Shown: positions 48,135 to 64,000 of the stretch, piece by piece
Layout of the letters: the number at the start of each line of letters is the position of its first letter
Position numbering within the stretch: position 1 is the first letter of the stretch
Source of the DNA: an uncultured archaeon
GTDB lineage: Archaea; Asgardarchaeota; Hermodarchaeia; Hermodarchaeales; Hermodarchaeaceae
Length of the DNA: 64,000 nucleotides
Direction of reading: 5' to 3'
NCBI GenBank assembly: GCA_964347045.1
Contig: CAYFXC010000001.1
Span: forward strand, 121,243 to 185,242
The notes under the pieces: model-generated
What the model saw: only the letters and a program-made list of their open reading frames with translations
Database searches by the model: none
What the model was told of the DNA's origin: nothing
Translations under genes and position numbers: made by a program

Positions 48135-48650
48135 CTAACTAATACACGACCATGCTATTTGTCGGAAAGCATCTGTGACACCTTGCCCCTCCTTAGCACT
48201 GGTTTCGAAATATCCCCATCCAAGCTGCTGAGCATAAGCCATACCCTCCTCGGTTGTGGCTTGCCGTTGATCCACCAAATCCACTTTGTTTGCTAATAAA
48301 ACAGTGGGCACAGTACCAGTTACCTGCGAGACCTCTGAAAACCATTCAGGAATAGCTTCAAACGTTCGACGGCGCGTAACATCATAGACTAAAATTACAC
48401 CAGCGGCACCACGATAAAAGACAGGACGTACTGAACTGAAATGCGGTTGTCCAGCCAGGTCCCATAACTGTAACCGTACTAATGTATCACCGAAATTCAA
48501 CTCTTTCACTGCGAACGAAGTACCCACAGTCATGATGTAGGATTCTCGAAAGTGCCCTTCGGTGTAGCGTATAATGAGACTTGTCTTCCCAACTGCACCA
48601 TCACCGACGACACAGACTTTGAGTACGTATTGGCGTTGTTGCATACTCAT
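48135..48650 (-). CDS. Ras-superfamily small GTPase (Rab/Ras-like)
   Basis: G1 'GDGAVGKTSL', G3 'WDLAGQ', G4 'NKVDL', G5 'ETSAK'; 171 aa. Confidence 0.85.
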   Translation of the reverse strand: MSMQQRQYVLKVCVVGDGAVGKTSLIIRYTEGHFRESYIMTVGTSFAVKELNFGDTLVRLQLWDLAGQPHFSSVRPVFYRGAAGVILVYDVTRRRTFEAIPEWFSEVSQVTGTVPTVLLANKVDLVDQRQATTEEGMAYAQQLGWGYFETSAKEGQGVTDAFRQIAWSCIS

Positions 48651-51986: not shown

Positions 51987-53525
51987 TCATTTAGTTCTTC
52001 CTTTCTTTTCAAATTTCTTAGTCATAGTTTCAAAATCTTCTCCAAAAGCCGTTTCTTTAGTTGTTCGTTTTCGGACCTGAATGAAAACTGGAAACCGAGT
52101 AGCCTGGCCAACTACTAATGCTTCTCCAACACTAAGGCTTGAAATAGACGTCAAAGTTGCTTTTGTGATTTTTTCTGATGTAGCTCTAATGTGATCTAAG
52201 TCATAGGGGTTAGTAATTCTAAGAAATATGTTAGATCCACATTGTGAGAGAACTGTGGTTGAGAGTCGAACTGGTCGTTGTGAAATAATACACAAAGAGA
52301 GGTTATATTTACGACCTTCTCGGGCAATAGTTTCAATTATTCCCTTTGAAAAAGCTAGGGCACGGCGTGCTTCAGGACAGAATTGATGAGATTCCTCGAG
52401 AAACACAATTGTAGGAGGTATTTCCTCATCTCGTCTCAAGTCGAATAAATGTCTAAGAACAGCATCGACAATGATTTGCTTCTTTTGAAGACTCACCGTT
52501 TCACTCATATCAAGTATAACTCCATGGCCAGATTTCATTAACTTCTTCCATTCTGGTGTCGAAGTCTTTCCGAAGAGATTGAGACTTTGGAGATTATCTA
52601 ACCATCCCAATAGTGCTTCACGCGTTCGAGTGTTTATCGAAGGATCCTTTTCTAGCGCTTCAATCAAATCTCCTAAATCATAGGGTCTTCCTTTTCGAAC
52701 ACTACGTAGTGTTCGAATAATACGTGTCAGTTCACGAACCTGGATTGTTCCCATATCTGGAGAATATATCGCAAAGGATTTTGCACTCATTCGTGGTGTT
52801 GCTATCTCAACTAGAGGGCTCCGAATTACTACGAGGCGTTTTTCAATGTTTTTTCCTTTGATTTCTTGAGTGTCTGCAAACCCTGTGTATTCACCATGAA
52901 CGTCAATTACAAGTAATGCTGGACGCCCTTGAGCCACTCTTCTTGATAAGAGTTCTTCGAGCATAACAGAAGCGGCATAACTTTTTCCAGCTCCACTCAT
53001 TGCCAAGAGTGCAACGTGCTTTTGATACATTTTTGTCAAATCAAAAGTCGCAGGAATATTATGAAATAGTAAATGACCAAGCTCAATTCCCTCTTCAGCA
53101 AATCCAAGAAAACGTGACAAAATTTTTGGGTCTGGTGAAGAAACAATAGCGCCTGGCGAGGGAGGATACGTAATTCGGTGAATCTGCCCATTATCAAAAA
53201 TCCCTAAAGGATTTGCTTCGGCTAACACGTATTCCCATCGGTCAATAGGAAAAATCGCTCCAAAGGGTCTTCCTGACCGTGTAAATTCATGTACGGCGTC
53301 AACTTGCGAAAAATAGCGGTTCGTCTTGAATACATGCTCAACATGAGCGATGACTAATCCTTCTTCAGTTTCAACAGAAACGTATTGTCCTACGTGAACG
53401 GGTATCTCATTCTTAGTGTTTTGTTCATCACGTTTTCCAATGACAAAGGAAATCTTTTCTGTTGACGGGCTATCTTCAGTGCATACAACAGTTCCAAGCG
53501 ATTCAGAGTTCATTTGAGTCTTCAC
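51987..53525 (-). CDS. herA: HerA-family ATPase (FtsK/HerA, DUF87)
   Basis: Walker A 'LAMSGAGKSYAAS'; 'LVIDVHGEY'; 512 aa; immediately downstream of nurA. Confidence 0.75.
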   Translation of the reverse strand: MKTQMNSESLGTVVCTEDSPSTEKISFVIGKRDEQNTKNEIPVHVGQYVSVETEEGLVIAHVEHVFKTNRYFSQVDAVHEFTRSGRPFGAIFPIDRWEYVLAEANPLGIFDNGQIHRITYPPSPGAIVSSPDPKILSRFLGFAEEGIELGHLLFHNIPATFDLTKMYQKHVALLAMSGAGKSYAASVMLEELLSRRVAQGRPALLVIDVHGEYTGFADTQEIKGKNIEKRLVVIRSPLVEIATPRMSAKSFAIYSPDMGTIQVRELTRIIRTLRSVRKGRPYDLGDLIEALEKDPSINTRTREALLGWLDNLQSLNLFGKTSTPEWKKLMKSGHGVILDMSETVSLQKKQIIVDAVLRHLFDLRRDEEIPPTIVFLEESHQFCPEARRALAFSKGIIETIAREGRKYNLSLCIISQRPVRLSTTVLSQCGSNIFLRITNPYDLDHIRATSEKITKATLTSISSLSVGEALVVGQATRFPVFIQVRKRTTKETAFGEDFETMTKKFEKKGRTK

Positions 53526-53533
53526 CTTTAATT

Positions 53534-54712
53534 TTAATGAAATGGCATCCTTTCACGGCGGAGTTTTAATACACTCTGGGGATATCCTAGCCGATTGGCT
53601 AATTGTGTAAAAAGAAAATCAAGATCATGTTCAATTAACCGGGCTTGAGAGTCAGCATCGATTAGCACAGTAGGAAGCGCAAAGCCCTCATTATTTGAAG
53701 ACATTGGAAATAACATCGCGCTAACTTTCTCAACAATTCGAATTGGGTCATAAGCTCCAGTGAGAATTTCAATTCGTAAAGGATAATCAAACTTGGCCGT
53801 TCGGAGATAAATACAAACAATATTTTTGCTAGTCTGTATGCTCTCGTCGCCGGATTCAAGTGAATCATCGATATTTAATTCGTTTAATCGGAGAATTGGC
53901 GAACGTTCTCCCACGTCTAGGATTCTGAAAAATAAATCTGTGTCGTAACTGGTTCGCAAAATCGATCGATAATCCATCTGTAACAACGGTTTCAACGCGG
54001 GATATTTATTTATCAAATGTGGAAGAATTTCACCTAGAATCTTAATGAACCGTTGACTTCGACTATCTTTCACAACACCAGCAAGAAGCGTCCCAGTTTC
54101 TTGAGCTTTTTTATAGAGCTCTTCATACAGCTTTGAAATCAGTTGAAACTTGGTTGAAAACATTGACTGACTTGGTGGGCGGTCACTTAAATGTGGACTC
54201 AGAGAGCCGTCTAGTAAAAGGAGCTCTACTGGATGGTGATCTTGGACACGGATTGCCAATTCAAGTTCTGACTTGAGTCGTTCAAGGGAAGCGCTTACGT
54301 CTGCTTCGCGCCAAGAGATGGGATTGAATTCTGCTTTTACGGTTGGGGGCGTTGTTTTTTCAGGGAAATAGATTGCTGCTACTCGGTTTGATGGAGTATA
54401 TTCAAAAATAGTGGCACAAGCTCGAGTAATTACTAGCTCGATACCTCGTAGGGTTTTTTTGAGTAATCCTCCATCAACTCCACCTACACGAAGTCCGGTT
54501 AAATCTATAGGCTTCACTGAATTGGCTAATTGATTATCAACAAGATAGTTTTGGGCTAGTGGTAGGTTCTGATGAAGATTTAGCTTGTTTCGTTCACTTC
54601 GAAGAATTGAAGCAAAGGTATTTCTTTTCTTTTCATAGGCTTGAATTTGCTCAGCGATTTTCTGAATTGCTTTATCTAGCGGCCAAAGCTCCTGAACTGA
54701 TTTCATATACAT
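53534..54712 (-). CDS. nurA: NurA 5'-3' nuclease
   Basis: 'GLRVGGVDGGLL' (NurA DGS-type motif) plus an RNase-H-like fold; paired with herA. Confidence 0.7.
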   Translation of the reverse strand: MYMKSVQELWPLDKAIQKIAEQIQAYEKKRNTFASILRSERNKLNLHQNLPLAQNYLVDNQLANSVKPIDLTGLRVGGVDGGLLKKTLRGIELVITRACATIFEYTPSNRVAAIYFPEKTTPPTVKAEFNPISWREADVSASLERLKSELELAIRVQDHHPVELLLLDGSLSPHLSDRPPSQSMFSTKFQLISKLYEELYKKAQETGTLLAGVVKDSRSQRFIKILGEILPHLINKYPALKPLLQMDYRSILRTSYDTDLFFRILDVGERSPILRLNELNIDDSLESGDESIQTSKNIVCIYLRTAKFDYPLRIEILTGAYDPIRIVEKVSAMLFPMSSNNEGFALPTVLIDADSQARLIEHDLDFLFTQLANRLGYPQSVLKLRRERMPFH

Positions 54713-58673: not shown

Positions 58674-59543
58674 GTGGCCGAGGACGCGGTTCTGCAGCTT
58701 GCCGAAATTAACCGGCTCGCGACTTCATTGCGTGAGAAGCGTGATGAGCTAAATACTGAAGCTCAACAGCTAGTTAAAGAAAGGGATAAACTCAATGCAC
58801 AGGTTGCTGAGTGGCTCTCAAAGGCTCGTGAGCATCGTGAGAAACGTGATGAGTATAATCAGAAAGTCGCCGAATTCAAAGTTAAACGAGACGAAATCTA
58901 TACGAAATTAAAAAGCAAAGTAGATGAGCGTCAGGACAATGAAGATGAGGTAGAAGGAATTCAGAAGAAGACTTCGGCGCCATCACATGTTCTTCGCCGA
59001 AAAATTCGAGAACTCGATTGGTCTCTACAAACGCAAGTTTTAGATTTAAAACGTGAGCGGGAAATTATCGAAAACATTTCAGAACTTGAAGCGGAACTAA
59101 GAGTTGCAGAAGAGGCTGTAACAAAAAGAAAAGAAAGTGCAAAGGCGCGAACAGAAATTGAGGACTTACGATTGCTAATGAATGCGCACCATAATTCTGT
59201 TCTTGAGTTTGCAAGACTTTCTCAAGAAGAGAACCAGTATATGATTGAAGCATATGCAGAGGTGGATGCACTTCGAAAACGGGCAGATGAAGCACATCGC
59301 AAATATTTAGAAACTCGACGTGAAGCTGATGAGACTCATCGACGATTTCTAGAAGCTAGACAAGAAAATACTCGCCTGAGAAAAGAACTAGGAGAAATCC
59401 GCATTCGAAGGCGTGTGGAGAAAATCCAGGAAATCGGGGAACGACTTGAAGAGAAAGCGTCTGTGGCTCTTGAGAAGCATAAACGTGGGGAACGTTTGAC
59501 TATGGAAGAATTCTCTCTTCTCATGAAGCGTGGATTGCTTTAG
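58674..59543 (+). CDS. Coiled-coil protein (hypothetical)
   Basis: Continuous Glu/Arg/Lys heptad-rich sequence; 289 aa; non-ATG start. Confidence 0.4.
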   Translation: MAEDAVLQLAEINRLATSLREKRDELNTEAQQLVKERDKLNAQVAEWLSKAREHREKRDEYNQKVAEFKVKRDEIYTKLKSKVDERQDNEDEVEGIQKKTSAPSHVLRRKIRELDWSLQTQVLDLKREREIIENISELEAELRVAEEAVTKRKESAKARTEIEDLRLLMNAHHNSVLEFARLSQEENQYMIEAYAEVDALRKRADEAHRKYLETRREADETHRRFLEARQENTRLRKELGEIRIRRRVEKIQEIGERLEEKASVALEKHKRGERLTMEEFSLLMKRGLL

Positions 59544-59549
59544 AAAATC

Positions 59550-59969
59550 TCAACTAGCGATTGGAAGAATTATGTCTGCGGCGTTTTGTAAACCTCTATT
59601 TATCTTAGCCGCAGTATATAACAAAATCACTTCTTTTCCAAGTTCCCTCGCGCGACTTAATAGTGGTAAAAGGTTTTCATTTTCGGTTGTAAGGGCAATC
59701 GTTGTGATTTTTTCATTATAAATGAACTCCATTGCCTCTAAAGCAAAATGGATATCGAGGTCATCGTGGACGATAACCGGAACGAATCCTTCCTCAGCAA
59801 TAATTTTGGAATACTCAACAGCTTGATGTTGTAAAATGACTACCTTTCCAACCTTTATGTCGCCAATTTCTTCTAGGAGTGGTCGAAGTTTGGGTAAAAT
59901 TCCTGAAAGATCTGAGGAAACGCCGCTGTCAACCAATAACGCTACAGCGTTCTTCTTTTTTCGCCTCAT
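59550..59969 (-). CDS. NYN/LabA-like domain protein
   Basis: 'VALLVDSGV', 'HDDLDIHFALEAMEF', 'TTIALTTENENLLPLLSRARELGKEVILL' follow the NYN layout. The usual acidic 'SGDSDF' box is replaced by 'TTENEN'. Confidence 0.5.
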   Translation of the reverse strand: MRRKKKNAVALLVDSGVSSDLSGILPKLRPLLEEIGDIKVGKVVILQHQAVEYSKIIAEEGFVPVIVHDDLDIHFALEAMEFIYNEKITTIALTTENENLLPLLSRARELGKEVILLYTAAKINRGLQNAADIILPIAS

Positions 59970-59980
59970 TTCAGCTTCTC

Positions 59981-60772
59981 CTAGTTTCCAAACCGACGGT
60001 CTCTCTGTTGGTAGGTTCGTAGCGCACGCCAGAAATCAATTTTCCTAATCTCCGGCCAAAAAACATCTGCGAAATATAATTCAGAGTAAGCGGATTGCCA
60101 AAGTAAGAATCCGGACAACCTTTCCTCTCCCGAGGTTCGAATGATAAGTTCAGGATCAGCAATACCTGCGGTGTAGAGGTGTTTTTCAATTGTAGCATCT
60201 GTGATCTCGGATGGATTAAGTGTTCCTTTTTGAACTTTTTTGGCTATGCTTTTAACGGCGTCTACAATCTCTGTACGGCCGCCGTATCCAATTGCCACGT
60301 TTAGGTTAAAATTATCATAGTCAGCTGTTGCGTTCTCCGCTTCTTGAATTGCATTAAGCACACTAGTTGGGAGTAGAGTTAGTTGACCAATGGCACGAAC
60401 TTTAACTTTGTGACGATGGACGACTTCTGATCGAGCTACAGTTTCAAATCTTTCTTGGGCTAAAGCCATGATATGTTGAACCTCTTCTTCTTTTCTGGTA
60501 AAATTCTCCGTGGAAAAGACGTAAATGGTTACAACTTTTACTCCGGCTTCAAAGCACCAGTCGAGAACTTCATCGATACGTTGAGCACCAACCGAATGTC
60601 CGAAGGTACTGTCTTGGTTCTGCTGTTTTGCAAATCGCCGATTTCCATCTAGAATAATACCTACATGCATGGGCATTGGGTTATCCTTGATTTGGCGCCA
60701 AAGATACCACGAGTATAGATGATAGATCGGTCCTACAAGGTTTGTCACTGATAAGTCTCCGGATAGAGCCAA
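59981..60772 (-). CDS. uppS: cis-Prenyltransferase (undecaprenyl/dolichyl diphosphate synthase)
   Basis: 'HVGIILDGNRRFAK' and 'IRTSGEERLSGFLLWQSAYSELYF'. Confidence 0.9.
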   Translation of the reverse strand: MALSGDLSVTNLVGPIYHLYSWYLWRQIKDNPMPMHVGIILDGNRRFAKQQNQDSTFGHSVGAQRIDEVLDWCFEAGVKVVTIYVFSTENFTRKEEEVQHIMALAQERFETVARSEVVHRHKVKVRAIGQLTLLPTSVLNAIQEAENATADYDNFNLNVAIGYGGRTEIVDAVKSIAKKVQKGTLNPSEITDATIEKHLYTAGIADPELIIRTSGEERLSGFLLWQSAYSELYFADVFWPEIRKIDFWRALRTYQQRDRRFGN

Positions 60773-60817: not shown

Positions 60818-61201
60818 TTATCGGATCAACTTTTTGGCGATTTTCTTTGCCGCCCGTTCCATATTAATAAAAACTAATCCGAGACCAGCAAGAGATTCAG
60901 TATTGGTGCTCACCATTAACACTGAATCCGATCCAACTGCAACCATAATAACTGCTCCAGATCCTCCTTGAGCATAAACTTGGTGTAAGGCGCCTTTCTC
61001 TAAATCTGATGCTGCTCTTTCTCCAACGGTTAGTAAAGCTGCACTCATTGCTGCTAAAAGGGTTTCATCGTATTCTTCTGGAAGTTTGGCTGCAATGGGT
61101 AGTCCATCAATACCAACGACGACAGCGGCTTCTATTTCTTCAACTGTCTCTGTTAAGCTCTCCAAAATTTTTTCAATTTCTGGGGAACTTGATATCATCA
61201 A
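60818..61201 (-). CDS. Roadblock/LC7 (MglB-like) domain protein
   Basis: 'AAVVVGIDGLPIAA...' alpha-beta-beta-alpha-beta-beta fold pattern; 127 aa. Confidence 0.8.
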   Translation of the reverse strand: MMISSSPEIEKILESLTETVEEIEAAVVVGIDGLPIAAKLPEEYDETLLAAMSAALLTVGERAASDLEKGALHQVYAQGGSGAVIMVAVGSDSVLMVSTNTESLAGLGLVFINMERAAKKIAKKLIR

Positions 61202-61208
61202 TTTTAGT

Positions 61209-61796
61209 CTAACTCGCGGATGCTTTTGCAGAGGTTTTAGGATACAAATGATACATCAAAATATCACGAGTTACTTGGCGAAACGCACGTTTAACATTTT
61301 CACCTGTAAGGGCACAGGTTGTGAAATTTGGGGCGTTCCCTAACCCCAATTTAGCCAACATGATGTCTTTTTTCATAGCATTTTGTAAATCTTGTTTGTT
61401 CAACATTACTACAAGACTGATGGAATGTCCGAGGTCCTCACTCACAAACGATCGAAGCTCTGCCATGCTCTCAATATTTGCGTCCATTTGATCAGGTGAC
61501 GAGTCTGCAACAAAAATAATTCCATCAACACCGCTTAAGATAACCTTTCGTTGACCCCTGTGTCGACGCTGACCAGCAACAGTGTAAACATCAAATACTA
61601 CCTGGGCTGTTGCCTGCATTGGTGTATAATCAAAAAATAGTGTTCGTCCAGTGTGATCCGCAACCGAAGTGAATCCGCCTTTATTTAGCCCCTCAACGTG
61701 ATCGTAAATCCAACGTAGTGCTGTTGTTTTACCAGATAACGAAGGTCCCCAGAAGACGATTTTAAAATGTATTCTTCCCTGCGTGTCTTTCTTCAA
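61209..61796 (-). CDS. MglA-like small GTPase
   Basis: G1 'GPSLSGKTT'. G3 is 'TVAGQ' (Asp replaced by Thr, as in MglA 'TVPGQ'). G4 'NKQD'; 195 aa. Flanked on both sides by roadblock genes. Confidence 0.78.
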   Translation of the reverse strand: MKKDTQGRIHFKIVFWGPSLSGKTTALRWIYDHVEGLNKGGFTSVADHTGRTLFFDYTPMQATAQVVFDVYTVAGQRRHRGQRKVILSGVDGIIFVADSSPDQMDANIESMAELRSFVSEDLGHSISLVVMLNKQDLQNAMKKDIMLAKLGLGNAPNFTTCALTGENVKRAFRQVTRDILMYHLYPKTSAKASAS

Positions 61797-61842
61797 AGTA
61801 GGACGGCTCCTTTGTGTTCGCGTTGCTTCTATCCCGTCCCCA

Positions 61843-62313
61843 CTAACCCTTCTCGAGTTCTCCCAATGCAGCTTTAAGCTCTTCCCGCTCAGCGTCGGTC
61901 TTCCCTGCTGCTACAGCAGGCTTTTCAGCCATAAACTCATCAAGAACTTTCGCTAGCTCAGCAGCGGCCTTCATCATGGTTAAGCGTATCATTCCAATAT
62001 TTACTTCCTTATCAGTAATTACACACAATACGCCTTTTCCTGCACCGGCTGCAAAAATTTTACCATCACCAAACTCTGATGTCACGATTGTTAAATCACC
62101 GACATCTAAACTCTTCCCTTGTTCTTCACTAGCACAAAACACGGCACTCGCTATTGCGCCAATGCCATCTACATCCACTGGATAATATGAGAACTTAGAG
62201 ACGTGAGCGATGGTTAGTCCTGTTCTATCGACGAGGATGGTCTTCTTGATTCCTGGTTCGGATTTGATGACATCGGAGAGGATTTCATCAAATTGCCGTA
62301 CGGTTATGGACAC
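61843..62313 (-). CDS. Roadblock/LC7 (MglB-like) domain protein
   Basis: 'ILVDRTGLTIAHV...GVLCVITDKEVNIGMIRL'; 156 aa. Confidence 0.8.
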   Translation of the reverse strand: MSITVRQFDEILSDVIKSEPGIKKTILVDRTGLTIAHVSKFSYYPVDVDGIGAIASAVFCASEEQGKSLDVGDLTIVTSEFGDGKIFAAGAGKGVLCVITDKEVNIGMIRLTMMKAAAELAKVLDEFMAEKPAVAAGKTDAEREELKAALGELEKG

Positions 62314-62394
62314 GGTTTATCCCTTTCCATGGGGCTAGCTTGGCTTTATCTTCGGGAGATGACTTTTAATTCTTGTGTGGAGAACGTGGGAGTC

Positions 62395-62694
62395 TCATCC
62401 TCTCATGACGATGAGAATGTAGTCTTCTTCAGGGGCTACCATGACTTCTCCTTTGGGTGTTGAGATGGTAAGGAAGTTCATGCCGCCTTCTCCTAGTTCA
62501 TCAACAACACGTTTGGCTTTGCCTACCAGCGATGTGACAAGTGCTGCAATAACCTCAGTTGTTTCAGCACTTAGATTGGAGCTAATTGGTAGACCTTCCA
62601 TATTTGTAATAATGACGCCACGAACTCCTTCATGGGCGCCAAGGCGTTTGAGTGAGTCTTTTAGTGCTTTTCCGCCGATCATTGTACTCCACAC
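62395..62694 (-). CDS. Roadblock/LC7 (MglB-like) domain protein
   Basis: '[16 protein letters not shown] ... [24 protein letters not shown]'; 99 aa. Confidence 0.8.
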
Positions 62695-62848
62695 TCTCTA
62701 GCCACTGACTAGTGGTCTCTTATAGATGTTATAAAAGTTCCCTCTTGTTCGGAGATAATGTAGAAGTTTTGAAAAAAACTATTGCTTCCGTCTTTCTGAC
62801 GGACAGTTTTTAAACATTGACACCAAATCCTTTCTATCGCAACCATTA

Positions 62849-63247
62849 TTGCCATGTTCACTGGCGATGGGTGTGGCTTTCATGCTCGGAAAGAAAGAAG
62901 TTGAACAGATTCTTGCAGACATCATGGATACTATTCCTGAACTTGAGGGGATCATCGCAGCCTCTCAGAGTGGGAAGGTAATTGCAGGACAGACCTTGCG
63001 AGATATGGACCATAGTGCAATCACTTCAAGCGTTGTTGCCCTCTTAAAAGAAACAAAGACGGTAAACAAGGCTGTCGATCAAGGCCCTGTGCAATCTATC
63101 TATTTGGAAACAGACAAAGGTTATACTGTGGCCGTTACTGCTTCAAAAACACTGGTTGTTGCCATCGCCGGAAGGGATGCGGCTCCCAGTTTGGGTCTTA
63201 TAATCAGGAGCCTAAGATCAGCAGTTGATAAGATTGGAAAAAGCTAG
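62849..63247 (+). CDS. Roadblock/LC7 (MglB-like) domain protein
   Basis: 'LEGIIAASQSGKVIAG ... IYLETDKGYTVAVTASKTLVVAIAG'; 132 aa; divergent from the other three. Confidence 0.75.
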   Translation: MPCSLAMGVAFMLGKKEVEQILADIMDTIPELEGIIAASQSGKVIAGQTLRDMDHSAITSSVVALLKETKTVNKAVDQGPVQSIYLETDKGYTVAVTASKTLVVAIAGRDAAPSLGLIIRSLRSAVDKIGKS

Positions 63248-63605
63248 TAAAACTTTTTTTGGTTCTAGCTATCCTCCAAGTTTCGTTCTTTTTCCAATCT
63301 AAAGTCGGCGATCGTTTCTAGGTGGAGTTGTTTCTGGGCACGTCAGAGAAAACTGTGAACAACTTCGCCTTGAAGTTTGGAGTTTCCTACTTTATTCCAT
63401 CGACTCGTACCAGTTGAGCCGAAGGCTATACTTGTCGTTCCGATGGTGTTACCAGTCATAGGAGTTTATTGCTATTTGAAAACAAACTAGAACCTATTCA
63501 ATAGCATATCAACGAATTTTTTAAGTTCCATAATTCATTTCCATTCTGTAGTACCAAGATTTTAACTGGGTTAAAGATAAAAGGAAGAGAGTAGGCGTTT
63601 TTCTC

Positions 63606-64000
63606 GTGGCTTATTTACGTCAAATTTCAATTCAAGGGTTTAAAAGTTTCAGTCCAAAAAAAACCACTATTGATCTAAGTAGGGGTTTTACTGCAATCGT
63701 TGGTGAAAATGGCTGTGGTAAAAGCAACATTTTGGATGCTGTTTGCTTTGTACTTGGTCGTTTGAGTAGCAAATCTTTGCGTGCTGAGAATTTTGCTTCA
63801 TTGCTATTTAATGGTGGTTCTGGTAATTCTCCCGCAAAATTGTGCCGTGTTAGTCTCGTTTTTGATAATACTGATCGCCAATTTCCCATTGATGCAAATG
63901 AAATAACAATAAGTCGAGAAGTCGATGAAACTGGAATTAGTGCATATCGAATAGGTGGCAAACGGGTTACGCGTACCGAAATGATTGATACAATAGCAGT
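63606..64000 (+). CDS. smc: SMC chromosome segregation ATPase, N-terminal fragment (runs off the window)
   Basis: GTG start. 'ISIQGFKSFSPKKTTIDLSRGFTAIVGENGCGKSNILDAVCFVLG' is the SMC N-terminal Walker A region. Missed by the ORF track because there is no stop in the window; the listed antisense 109-aa ORF is spurious. Confidence 0.85.
   Translation, partial: MAYLRQISIQGFKSFSPKKTTIDLSRGFTAIVGENGCGKSNILDAVCFVLGRLSSKSLRAENFASLLFNGGSGNSPAKLCRVSLVFDNTDRQFPIDANEITISREVDETGISAYRIGGKRVTRTEMIDTIA

Follow-up and report, generated by a model that had tools for sequence, protein, structure and literature searches.

Introduction

In the bacterial mglBA operon the roadblock gene mglB lies directly upstream of mglA, the gene for a small GTPase. 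Here we describe a cluster comprising one MglA-family GTPase gene and four roadblock/LC7 genes (RB_A, RB_B, RB_C and RB_D), which occupies positions 60818-63247 of a 64-kb stretch of contig CAYFXC010000001.1 from an uncultured archaeon of the Hermodarchaeaceae; the whole of this stretch is referred to as the window. A survey from 2014 counted at most two roadblocks per MglA (PMC4316618). In the Myxococcus xanthus MglB-MglC-RomY system there is more than one roadblock-fold protein per MglA, and the dimers bind each other, tuning and localising the GTPase-activating protein (GAP) activity (PMC9481161). We read the cluster as an Asgard switch module of the MglA/MglB type which has been enlarged to four roadblock subunits, a reading to which we give somewhat better than an even chance.

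Asgard archaea encode dozens of small GTPases along with roadblock/longin proteins, and these are thought to foreshadow the regulation of membranes and cytoskeleton in eukaryotes. Roadblock expansions in Asgard genomes, solved Asgard roadblock structures and the "MglA bacterial-like GTPases" of MK-D1 have already been described (PMC10933270), an MglA/MglB pair from Thor has been modelled by AlphaFold 3 (PMC13408092) and a different Asgard operon, which contains LAMTOR1-like, Rab-like and DENN genes, has been reported (bioRxiv 10.1101/2020.10.19.343400). It has been argued that these GTPases cannot be matched to their regulators by genome layout, as they are generally not found in operons (PMC10933270). 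The cluster described here is a clear exception, in that one GTPase is accompanied by four specific, conserved roadblock partners in most Asgard classes. No paper on a conserved cluster of one MglA and four roadblocks was found in our literature search, which did not take in the supplementary tables on gene neighbourhoods in Liu et al. 2021.

Results

One GTPase gene and four roadblock genes

A first-pass annotation of the window had placed one small GTPase and four roadblock genes in this region. All five open reading frames (ORFs) were present at the coordinates which it gave them in our ORF list for 56-64 kb, and the composition of the cluster was confirmed by this list and by matches to the Pfam family Robl_LC7 (PF03259). 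The GTPase gene (61209-61796, minus strand) encodes a protein of 195 aa, in the translation of which we recovered the annotated P-loop (GPSLSGKT), G3 (TVAGQ76) and G4 (NKQD) motifs as well as a G2 motif, GR51T52. Directly upstream lies RB_B (61843-62313, minus strand), an MglB-like full-length roadblock of 156 aa, preceded by RB_C (62395-62694, minus strand), a short roadblock of the LC7 or "RBLC7" type with a longest ORF of 99 aa, probably 95 aa from ATG 62682. The full-length roadblock RB_A (60818-61201, minus strand; 127 aa, probably 126 aa from ATG 61198) follows the GTPase gene, and the full-length RB_D (62849-63247, plus strand; longest ORF 132 aa, probably 126 aa from ATG 62867) is divergent, so that three roadblocks share the strand of the GTPase as had been stated. 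The annotated size range of 99-156 aa holds for the longest ORFs; conserved upstream sequence and public gene calls indicate that the starts of RB_A, RB_C and RB_D probably give shorter proteins, and the true range by these starts is about 95-156 aa.

All four small ORFs exceeded the curated Pfam gathering cut-off of 23 bits for Robl_LC7, including RB_A (2.5e-14, 53.2 bits), RB_B (1.7e-10, 40.9 bits), RB_C (1.4e-20, 73.3 bits) and RB_D (1.3e-6, 28.4 bits), which bears out their annotation as roadblock/LC7 proteins. The window has 171 ORFs of 60 aa or more; of these, only the four matched roadblock profiles, and only one, the GTPase at 61209-61796, gave a strong match to an MglA profile. The clustering is therefore far beyond chance, and the ordered set was found again in dozens of species-level genomes. 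Genomic coupling of MglA to an MglB/roadblock gene is judged by a distance of at most four genes; here, all four roadblock genes lie at most two genes from the GTPase gene. The gaps are 7 nt between the MglA and RB_A genes, 46 nt between RB_B and MglA and 81 nt between RB_C and RB_B. A further 45 nt separate RB_A from a gene for a UppS-type cis-prenyltransferase (59981-60772, minus strand; 263 aa, Pfam Prenyltransf 2.4e-82), which borders the cluster on one side; on the other side an SMC gene begins at about 63606 (plus strand). No further ORF interrupts the cluster. The GTPase sequence recurs unchanged in a metagenome assembly, and copies with 92-96% identity were found in metagenome-assembled genomes labelled Hermodarchaeota, which places the window in the Hermod lineage of the Asgard archaea. 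The GC content of the window is uniform (40-43%) and there is therefore no sign of a foreign island.

The GTPase belongs to the MglA family

By sequence and by modelled fold the GTPase is a member of the MglA family, of the Group 1 type, and it groups with MglA rather than with an unrelated family, in line with its first annotation as MglA-like. When the PDB was searched with phmmer, its closest solved relatives were Thermus thermophilus MglA (3.9e-34) and M. xanthus MglA (about 4e-32), to which it is 35-42% identical, and the next family was Arf, with a best match of 4.3e-11. An AlphaFold2 model (pLDDT 88.7), for which 63 orthologs were used, gave the same picture in Foldseek: ranks 1 to 14 were all MglA (TM 0.76-0.90, 34-42% identity), with Arf and Rab at least five orders of magnitude behind. 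An identity as Arf, Rag or SR-beta was ruled out by this lead of MglA in the sequence and fold searches, which by sequence amounts to 20 or more orders of magnitude. Arf ranked first in Pfam because Pfam holds no MglA model, and the match to Gtr1_RagA was weak (3e-5, against 4e-34 for MglA).

The hallmarks of Group 1 MglA are a TVxGQ motif without the G3 Asp and an Arg adjoining the G2 Thr (Wuichet & Sogaard-Andersen 2014, PMC4316618). The Asgard protein aligns to T. thermophilus MglA without gaps across G1-G2, where GR51T52 pairs with ER53T, and its G3 motif TVAGQ lacks the canonical Asp and keeps the catalytic Gln, with Ala in the position at which the bacterial TVPGQ has Pro. T52, T72, A74, G75 and Q76 do not vary across the 63 Asgard orthologs, and R51 hardly does. 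The GTPase is unlike the euryarchaeal Group 4 MglA, which has GTPGQ and no Arg finger. It is the sole GTPase gene of the cluster and consists of a single domain of 195 aa, without the C-terminal roadblock domain of the Rag/Gtr type.

RB_B resembles MglB

Judged by its sequence and model, RB_B is MglB-like but no MglB equivalog. Its closest sequences in the PDB were T. thermophilus MglB (3.1e-6) and then M. xanthus MglB (1.4e-4), and the best Foldseek match of its model was MglB (3t1r, 3.9e-10, TM 0.67/0.78), with LAMTOR2, MK-D1 Roadblock3 and Asgard roadblocks close behind. Further profile matches were to MAPKK1_Int (6.7e-7, Pfam) and MglB (8.3e-7, NCBIfam). Identity to T. thermophilus MglB is 19-20%, which is too weak to place the MglB residues A68 and A72. 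RB_B is the best conserved member of the cluster, with 60-76% identity between Asgard classes; where the two were compared directly, RB_B had 62-76% and MglA 55-63%. At its C-terminus a conserved motif, EEELKAALxELEK, follows a linker of variable length; the model has a helix at 140-155 preceded by a low-confidence linker at 131-138. In sequence and model this predicted helix resembles the C-terminal helix which is tethered to MglB in M. xanthus, a feature which has been discussed for archaeal pairs (PMC13408092).

The remaining roadblocks and the comparison to Ragulator

The four roadblocks are mutually 22-26% identical, which marks them as old and distinct paralogs; a recent tandem duplication was ruled out by this identity and by the cross-phylum orthologs of each. 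RB_C was closest in the PDB to Odin-RBLC7 (7F8F, 3.5e-29, about 65% identity), followed by eukaryotic dynein light chain roadblock proteins (4e-18 to 1e-15), and it is 40% identical to human DYNLRB1. It stops right past the last strand in the paralog alignment, without a C-terminal helix, and thus shows both features by which a short roadblock of the dynein-LC7 type is recognised: a core lacking that helix and DYNLRB as closest relative. Because the helix is missing an open groove is expected, and by analogy to dynein LC7 and LAMTOR4/5 RB_C should expose it for the helix of an effector or adaptor; an open groove taking a partner helix has been argued for RBLC7, dynein LC7 and LAMTOR4/5 (PMC10933270). 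The first-pass annotation was right about the set of one GTPase and four roadblocks and had overlooked this likeness of RB_C to dynein LC7, the likeness of RB_B to MglB and the functional or syntenic extension of the cluster to UppS.

RB_A matched a Thor roadblock (7f8m, 4e-18), MK-D1 Roadblock3 (9jue, 1.4e-14) and Streptomyces CvnB5 (3LEQ, 6e-9). We considered Thor-RB (7F8M) as a solved ortholog of RB_A and rejected it: it is 45% identical to the RB_A of the Thor cluster itself and is a paralog. RB_D matched 9JQ8 (5.8e-15), which is titled only "Roadblock/LC7 domain protein", and CvnB5 (7.6e-7), and it also has a Pfam match to MAPKK1_Int/LAMTOR3. From these matches RB_A and RB_D are classed as generic full-length roadblocks.

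The cluster could in principle encode a true Ragulator-like obligate hetero-oligomer, a forerunner of Ragulator/EGO in which two stacked heterodimers anchor MglA at the membrane and act as its guanine nucleotide exchange factor (GEF) or GAP. Four distinct roadblocks surround one GTPase, one of them short and LAMTOR4/5-like; RB_C has a weak match to the Pfam family LAMTOR5 (2.5e-5), RB_B and RB_D match MAPKK1_Int/LAMTOR3, LAMTOR2 is among the top structural matches of RB_B, and the set is conserved across classes. However, the GTPase is of the single-domain MglA type without a Rag/Gtr C-terminal roadblock domain, no LAMTOR1-like wrapping and anchoring subunit was found in searches of the cluster and the window, and inspection of the translations revealed no predicted membrane anchor in the five sequences. 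The roadblocks comprise three long proteins (127, 156 and 132 aa) and one short protein (95-99 aa) rather than two of each, their nearest solved relatives are homodimeric, and several lineages are reduced to one or two roadblocks. We therefore regard this alternative as improbable. The label "Ragulator-like", which had been suggested for the module, was not upheld by the single-domain GTPase, the lack of a LAMTOR1-like subunit in the cluster and the three long and one short roadblocks.

Gene order across Asgard lineages

We compared the surroundings of relatives of the GTPase in 80 species-level genome loci, typed their ORFs by profiles made from the window proteins and coded the gene order using D' for a divergent RB_D, S for a Sec23/24-like gene, C, B and A for the other roadblocks, G for the GTPase and U for UppS. 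The arrangement D'-S-C-B-G-A-U was present in 18 loci and D'-C-B-G-A-U in 9, so that the complete order (with or without S) occurred in 27/80 loci; most others had the same order cut by contig ends or a reduced one, including 8 loci with B-G-A. The full order was seen in Hermod, Thor, Baldr, Jord/Frey and one Hod genome, and it is in these that RB_D keeps its divergent position. For each roadblock, orthologs in the corresponding position occur in Hermod, Thor, Baldr, Jord/Frey, Atabey and Hod, with the exception that the Atabey cluster lacks D. In Heimdall and Odin the order is eroded; Heimdall has C-G and a U-A pair nearby. Median gaps were 13 nt for G-A (53 loci), 17 nt for C-B, 66 nt for A-U (44 loci) and 164 nt for B-G. 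This order, conserved as it is across Asgard classes, speaks for the set acting together.

Could the clustering be meaningless, the remnant of local duplications in a housekeeping-rich region which rearranges slowly? The flanking SMC, UppS, NYN and GPN-loop GTPase genes are likewise syntenic across several lineages, and some of the conservation of order may therefore reflect inheritance of the gene neighbourhood and not function. Against this, the paralogs diverged long ago (22-26% identity) and each is under clear purifying selection, with up to 76% identity across classes; their spacing is tight, their orientation shared and the promoter-like blocks described below are conserved. The coupling of MglA and MglB is a well-documented functional pairing (PMC4316618), and positional orthology over at least six classes is hard to square with a relic. 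We consider this explanation highly improbable.

In addition to the cluster, a second MglA-like paralog (48-51% identical) was found in Thor-type genomes (L065-L072, L074, L075, L078-L080 and L082). Its reading frame is longer upstream of the GTPase domain, with longest ORFs of 268-370 aa, which is either an extension or a start-codon artefact. This paralog accounts for the 13 loci typed as G alone; it has no adjacent roadblocks, and only in L078 is there a roadblock ORF, about 1.4 kb off on the opposite strand. An RB_B ortholog of about 70% identity without MglA nearby was observed in L106 and L107 (Hel/Loki-labelled) and in L108 (Hel-labelled), and in the first two it is flanked by genes for MCM and for a cytidylyltransferase-like protein. 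In two Hodarchaeales loci (L048 and L052) RB_B is immediately preceded by an archaeal prepilin-peptidase-like gene (Peptidase_A24/Arc_PepC_II) and RB_A is immediately followed by a gene for a TPR protein; the former recalls the bacterial link between MglA and type IV pili, by analogy, and may be a coincidence.

Putative transcription signals

The intergenic region between RB_C and RB_D (62695-62848, 154 nt) was aligned across eight Hermod-type genomes. Three blocks were invariant in all eight, within sequence which otherwise varies: a TATA-like box for the RB_C operon (TTTTATAA, 62729-62736, read on the minus strand), a TATA-like box for RB_D (TTTTTAAA, 62807-62814, plus strand) and a palindrome (CCACTGACTAGTGG, 62702-62715) located between the RB_C TATA-like box and the GGAG/ATG. 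A GGAG is conserved ahead of the RB_C ATG at 62682. By analogy to archaeal promoter architecture we infer that these blocks are putative promoter/operator elements, and the palindrome may be an operator or a hairpin in the 5'-untranslated region. Seven nucleotides past the RB_D stop the sequence contains a run of seven T (63254-63260, plus strand), likely an archaeal oligo-T terminator. The layout suggests that RB_C, RB_B, MglA and RB_A form a single minus-strand operon headed by RB_C, with RB_D as a separate divergent unit; UppS is possibly co-transcribed with RB_A or merely syntenic.

A Sec23/24-like gene in Thor clusters

In Thor-type loci a Sec23/24-like gene encoding 540-560 aa is inserted on the strand of the operon, with RB_D to one side and RB_C to the other. 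It was present in 27/27 of the Thor-type genome loci which cover this position (for example L012:1070-2701, L015:3058-4722, L017:2896-4530, L023:1078-2706, L084:6001-7626 and L105:2834-4519) and in 6/8 metagenome contigs of Thor type, the remaining two of which carry the gene near the contig end. Pfam matches were to the Sec23 trunk (Sec23_trunk, 1e-12), beta-sandwich (6e-7) and zinc finger (2.5e-3). A profile scan of the window found no such gene. In a reciprocal scan of metagenomes the linkage of Sec23/24 to MglA was confined to Thor-type contigs and is therefore lineage-specific, the product of one evolutionary event; two distant Sec23-like genes (33% identical, on short contigs) lacked any neighbouring gene for a roadblock or for MglA.

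This linkage suggests, as a lead only, that an MglA-type GTPase is a candidate partner of the archaeal Sec23/24 homologs. No nucleotide-dependent binding of Asgard Sec23-like proteins to an Asgard Arf was reported in an earlier study (PMC11914678), which would be explained if MglA were the cognate GTPase. A bolder proposal would make the module the remnant of an ancestral platform of GTPase and roadblocks in the Asgard archaea, one which predates, and is related to, the dynein-LC7 and Ragulator-type platforms, and would make MglA with its roadblocks, not an Arf/Sar-like protein, the cognate GTPase of the Thor Sec23/24-like proto-COPII protein; we hold this to be a long shot. We found no paper which notes the Sec23/24-like insertion in the Thor MglA-roadblock cluster.

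Other genes in the window

The genes flanking the cluster encode an NYN-domain protein (59550-59969, minus strand), a GPN-loop GTPase (PF03029; 57001-57768, plus strand) and SMC (63606-64000, plus strand), and these and UppS remain near MglA in distant Asgard lineages (L001, L104 and L105). Between an ATP-grasp gene and the NYN gene lies a gene for a highly charged coiled-coil protein of 289 aa (DUF7121; 58674-59543, plus strand), which is also found in the orthologous contig L001. Further away, adjacent genes for a HerA-like helicase (DUF87/HerA_C) and a NurA nuclease (51987-54712, minus strand) make up a DNA end-resection operon of the ordinary archaeal kind. The window encodes another small GTPase (171 aa; 48135-48650, minus strand), which is of the Ras/Rab type (Pfam Ras 1.6e-51), has no roadblock neighbour and is typical of the Asgard GTPase expansion.

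Discussion

We propose that the cluster encodes a switch of the MglA/MglB type with four roadblock subunits. The GTPase would be a cytosolic, single-domain MglA which brings its own Arg finger (R51) and catalytic Gln (Q76). Most likely, a dimer of RB_B forms the platform which binds MglA-GTP and orients R51 and Q76 for hydrolysis, that is, acts as the GAP, with the tethered C-terminal helix of RB_B making a further, allosteric contact like that of MglB in M. xanthus. The other roadblocks would most likely be accessory dimers stacking on the RB_B platform, or competing with it, to tune, localise or couple the switch. This model is patterned on MglC and RomY, which act on MglB, and on the stacked LAMTOR dimers of Ragulator, and its contacts and stoichiometry are our inference from these precedents of multi-roadblock regulation (MglB/RomY/MglC, PMC9481161; Ragulator, PMC10933270). 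The genes C-B-MglA-A, probably together with UppS, would be expressed as one minus-strand unit and RB_D from a shared divergent promoter. In the cell the switch probably serves spatial control, at the membrane or the cytoskeleton. The parts of this proposal differ in strength: that RB_B pairs with MglA as its GAP we regard as likely, while for the claim that all four roadblocks act on this one GTPase we put the chances somewhat below even.

Several observations weigh against the enlarged switch. RB_B fails the NCBIfam equivalog model for MglB, NF052242, by a wide margin (29.2 bits against a cut-off of 200), and RB_D is the least conserved member, with orthologs 25-41% identical between classes. 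The four roadblocks are not obligatorily linked: the Hodarchaeales mostly have B-G-x-A, an Odin-like contig has B-G only, and in Loki/Hel RB_B is an orphan beside MCM at 70% identity. The last is in keeping with what has been stated of MK-D1, namely that its GTPase genes as a rule do not share operons with roadblocks (PMC10933270). In many Thor loci unrelated genes of up to 3 kb lie between RB_B and MglA, and the synteny of SMC, UppS, NYN and the GPN-loop GTPase counts here too. Odin-RBLC7, Thor-RB and the MK-D1 roadblocks were solved as homodimers; we list this here, although it is neutral on higher assemblies.

Some of the same observations would fit the view that only RB_B regulates MglA, with RB_A, RB_C and RB_D serving Rab-, Rag- or Arf-like GTPases or partners which are not GTPases and owing their place to ancestral tandem duplication and shared regulation. 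Asgard genomes are rich in roadblock and GTPase paralogs (bioRxiv 10.1101/2020.10.19.343400), the Ras/Rab-type GTPase at 48135-48650 is only 12 kb away, the cluster breaks up differently by lineage (B-G only, C-G only or G..A), an orphan RB_B is still 70% identical and the solved relatives are self-sufficient as homodimers. However, each paralog holds its own slot and orientation around MglA in at least six Asgard classes despite identities of 22-26%, and RB_A, by the median gap of 13 nt, is nearly translationally coupled to MglA. Elsewhere, Asgard GTPases are generally not operonic with roadblocks (PMC10933270), so the persistence of this cluster needs a reason. We think it rather unlikely that RB_B is the only one of the four to act on MglA. 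Should the roadblocks act independently, the locus would be a conserved mglBA-like pair with neighbouring paralogs, a useful annotation but an unsurprising one.

The cluster offers a defined set of five proteins for reconstitution and a rare matched set of GTPase and regulators in the closest archaeal relatives of eukaryotes. With these proteins one could test directly whether archaea already had multi-roadblock platforms like Ragulator or MglB/MglC, and the Thor insertion points to a specific GTPase as a candidate partner of the archaeal Sec23/24 homologs.

Comparison with known systems

The actinobacterial conservons (CvnA-D, with a Group 2 MglA and CvnB) are likewise operons which join an MglA-family GTPase to a roadblock, and RB_A and RB_D match CvnB5. 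However, conservons have a sensor kinase, a DUF742 protein and GTPases with GTPGQ and no Arg finger, all of which are missing from the Asgard cluster. The Asgard operon with LAMTOR1-like, Rab-like and DENN genes (Liu et al. 2021 preprint) also pairs a protein of the roadblock superfamily with a small GTPase, but its GTPase is Rab-like and not MglA, its other partners differ and it has a single roadblock-type gene.

We know of no dynein in archaea. Dynein LC7 (DYNLRB) and Odin-RBLC7 (7F8F, Tran et al. 2024) are short like RB_C and probably share the same open groove. RB_C is predicted to head an MglA operon, a context which is absent from the structural paper on Odin-RBLC7 (PMC10933270). Ragulator-Rag and EGO are similar to the cluster in that several roadblocks, including short ones, form a GTPase platform, and the fold of RB_B is near that of LAMTOR2. 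They differ in that MglA is a single domain and forms no Rag heterodimer, that there is no LAMTOR1 in the cluster or window and that there are three long roadblocks and one short one.

The bacterial MglA/MglB of T. thermophilus and M. xanthus share with the cluster an MglA fold, the lack of the G3 Asp, an Arg finger beside the G2 Thr and a roadblock gene directly upstream, and RB_B is predicted to have an MglB-like C-terminal helix on a flexible linker. In contrast to these, the cluster has an Asgard host, four roadblock paralogs instead of one and a G3 motif with Ala for Pro, and the sequence of RB_B is only distantly similar to MglB (3e-6). Neither RomR/RomX, Frz or motility genes were found near the cluster, nor was a RomY- or RomR-like gene seen at it. 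The partners of M. xanthus MglA, namely MglB, MglC and RomY/RomR, are scattered and specific to myxobacteria, whereas the Asgard paralogs are clustered and found phylum-wide.

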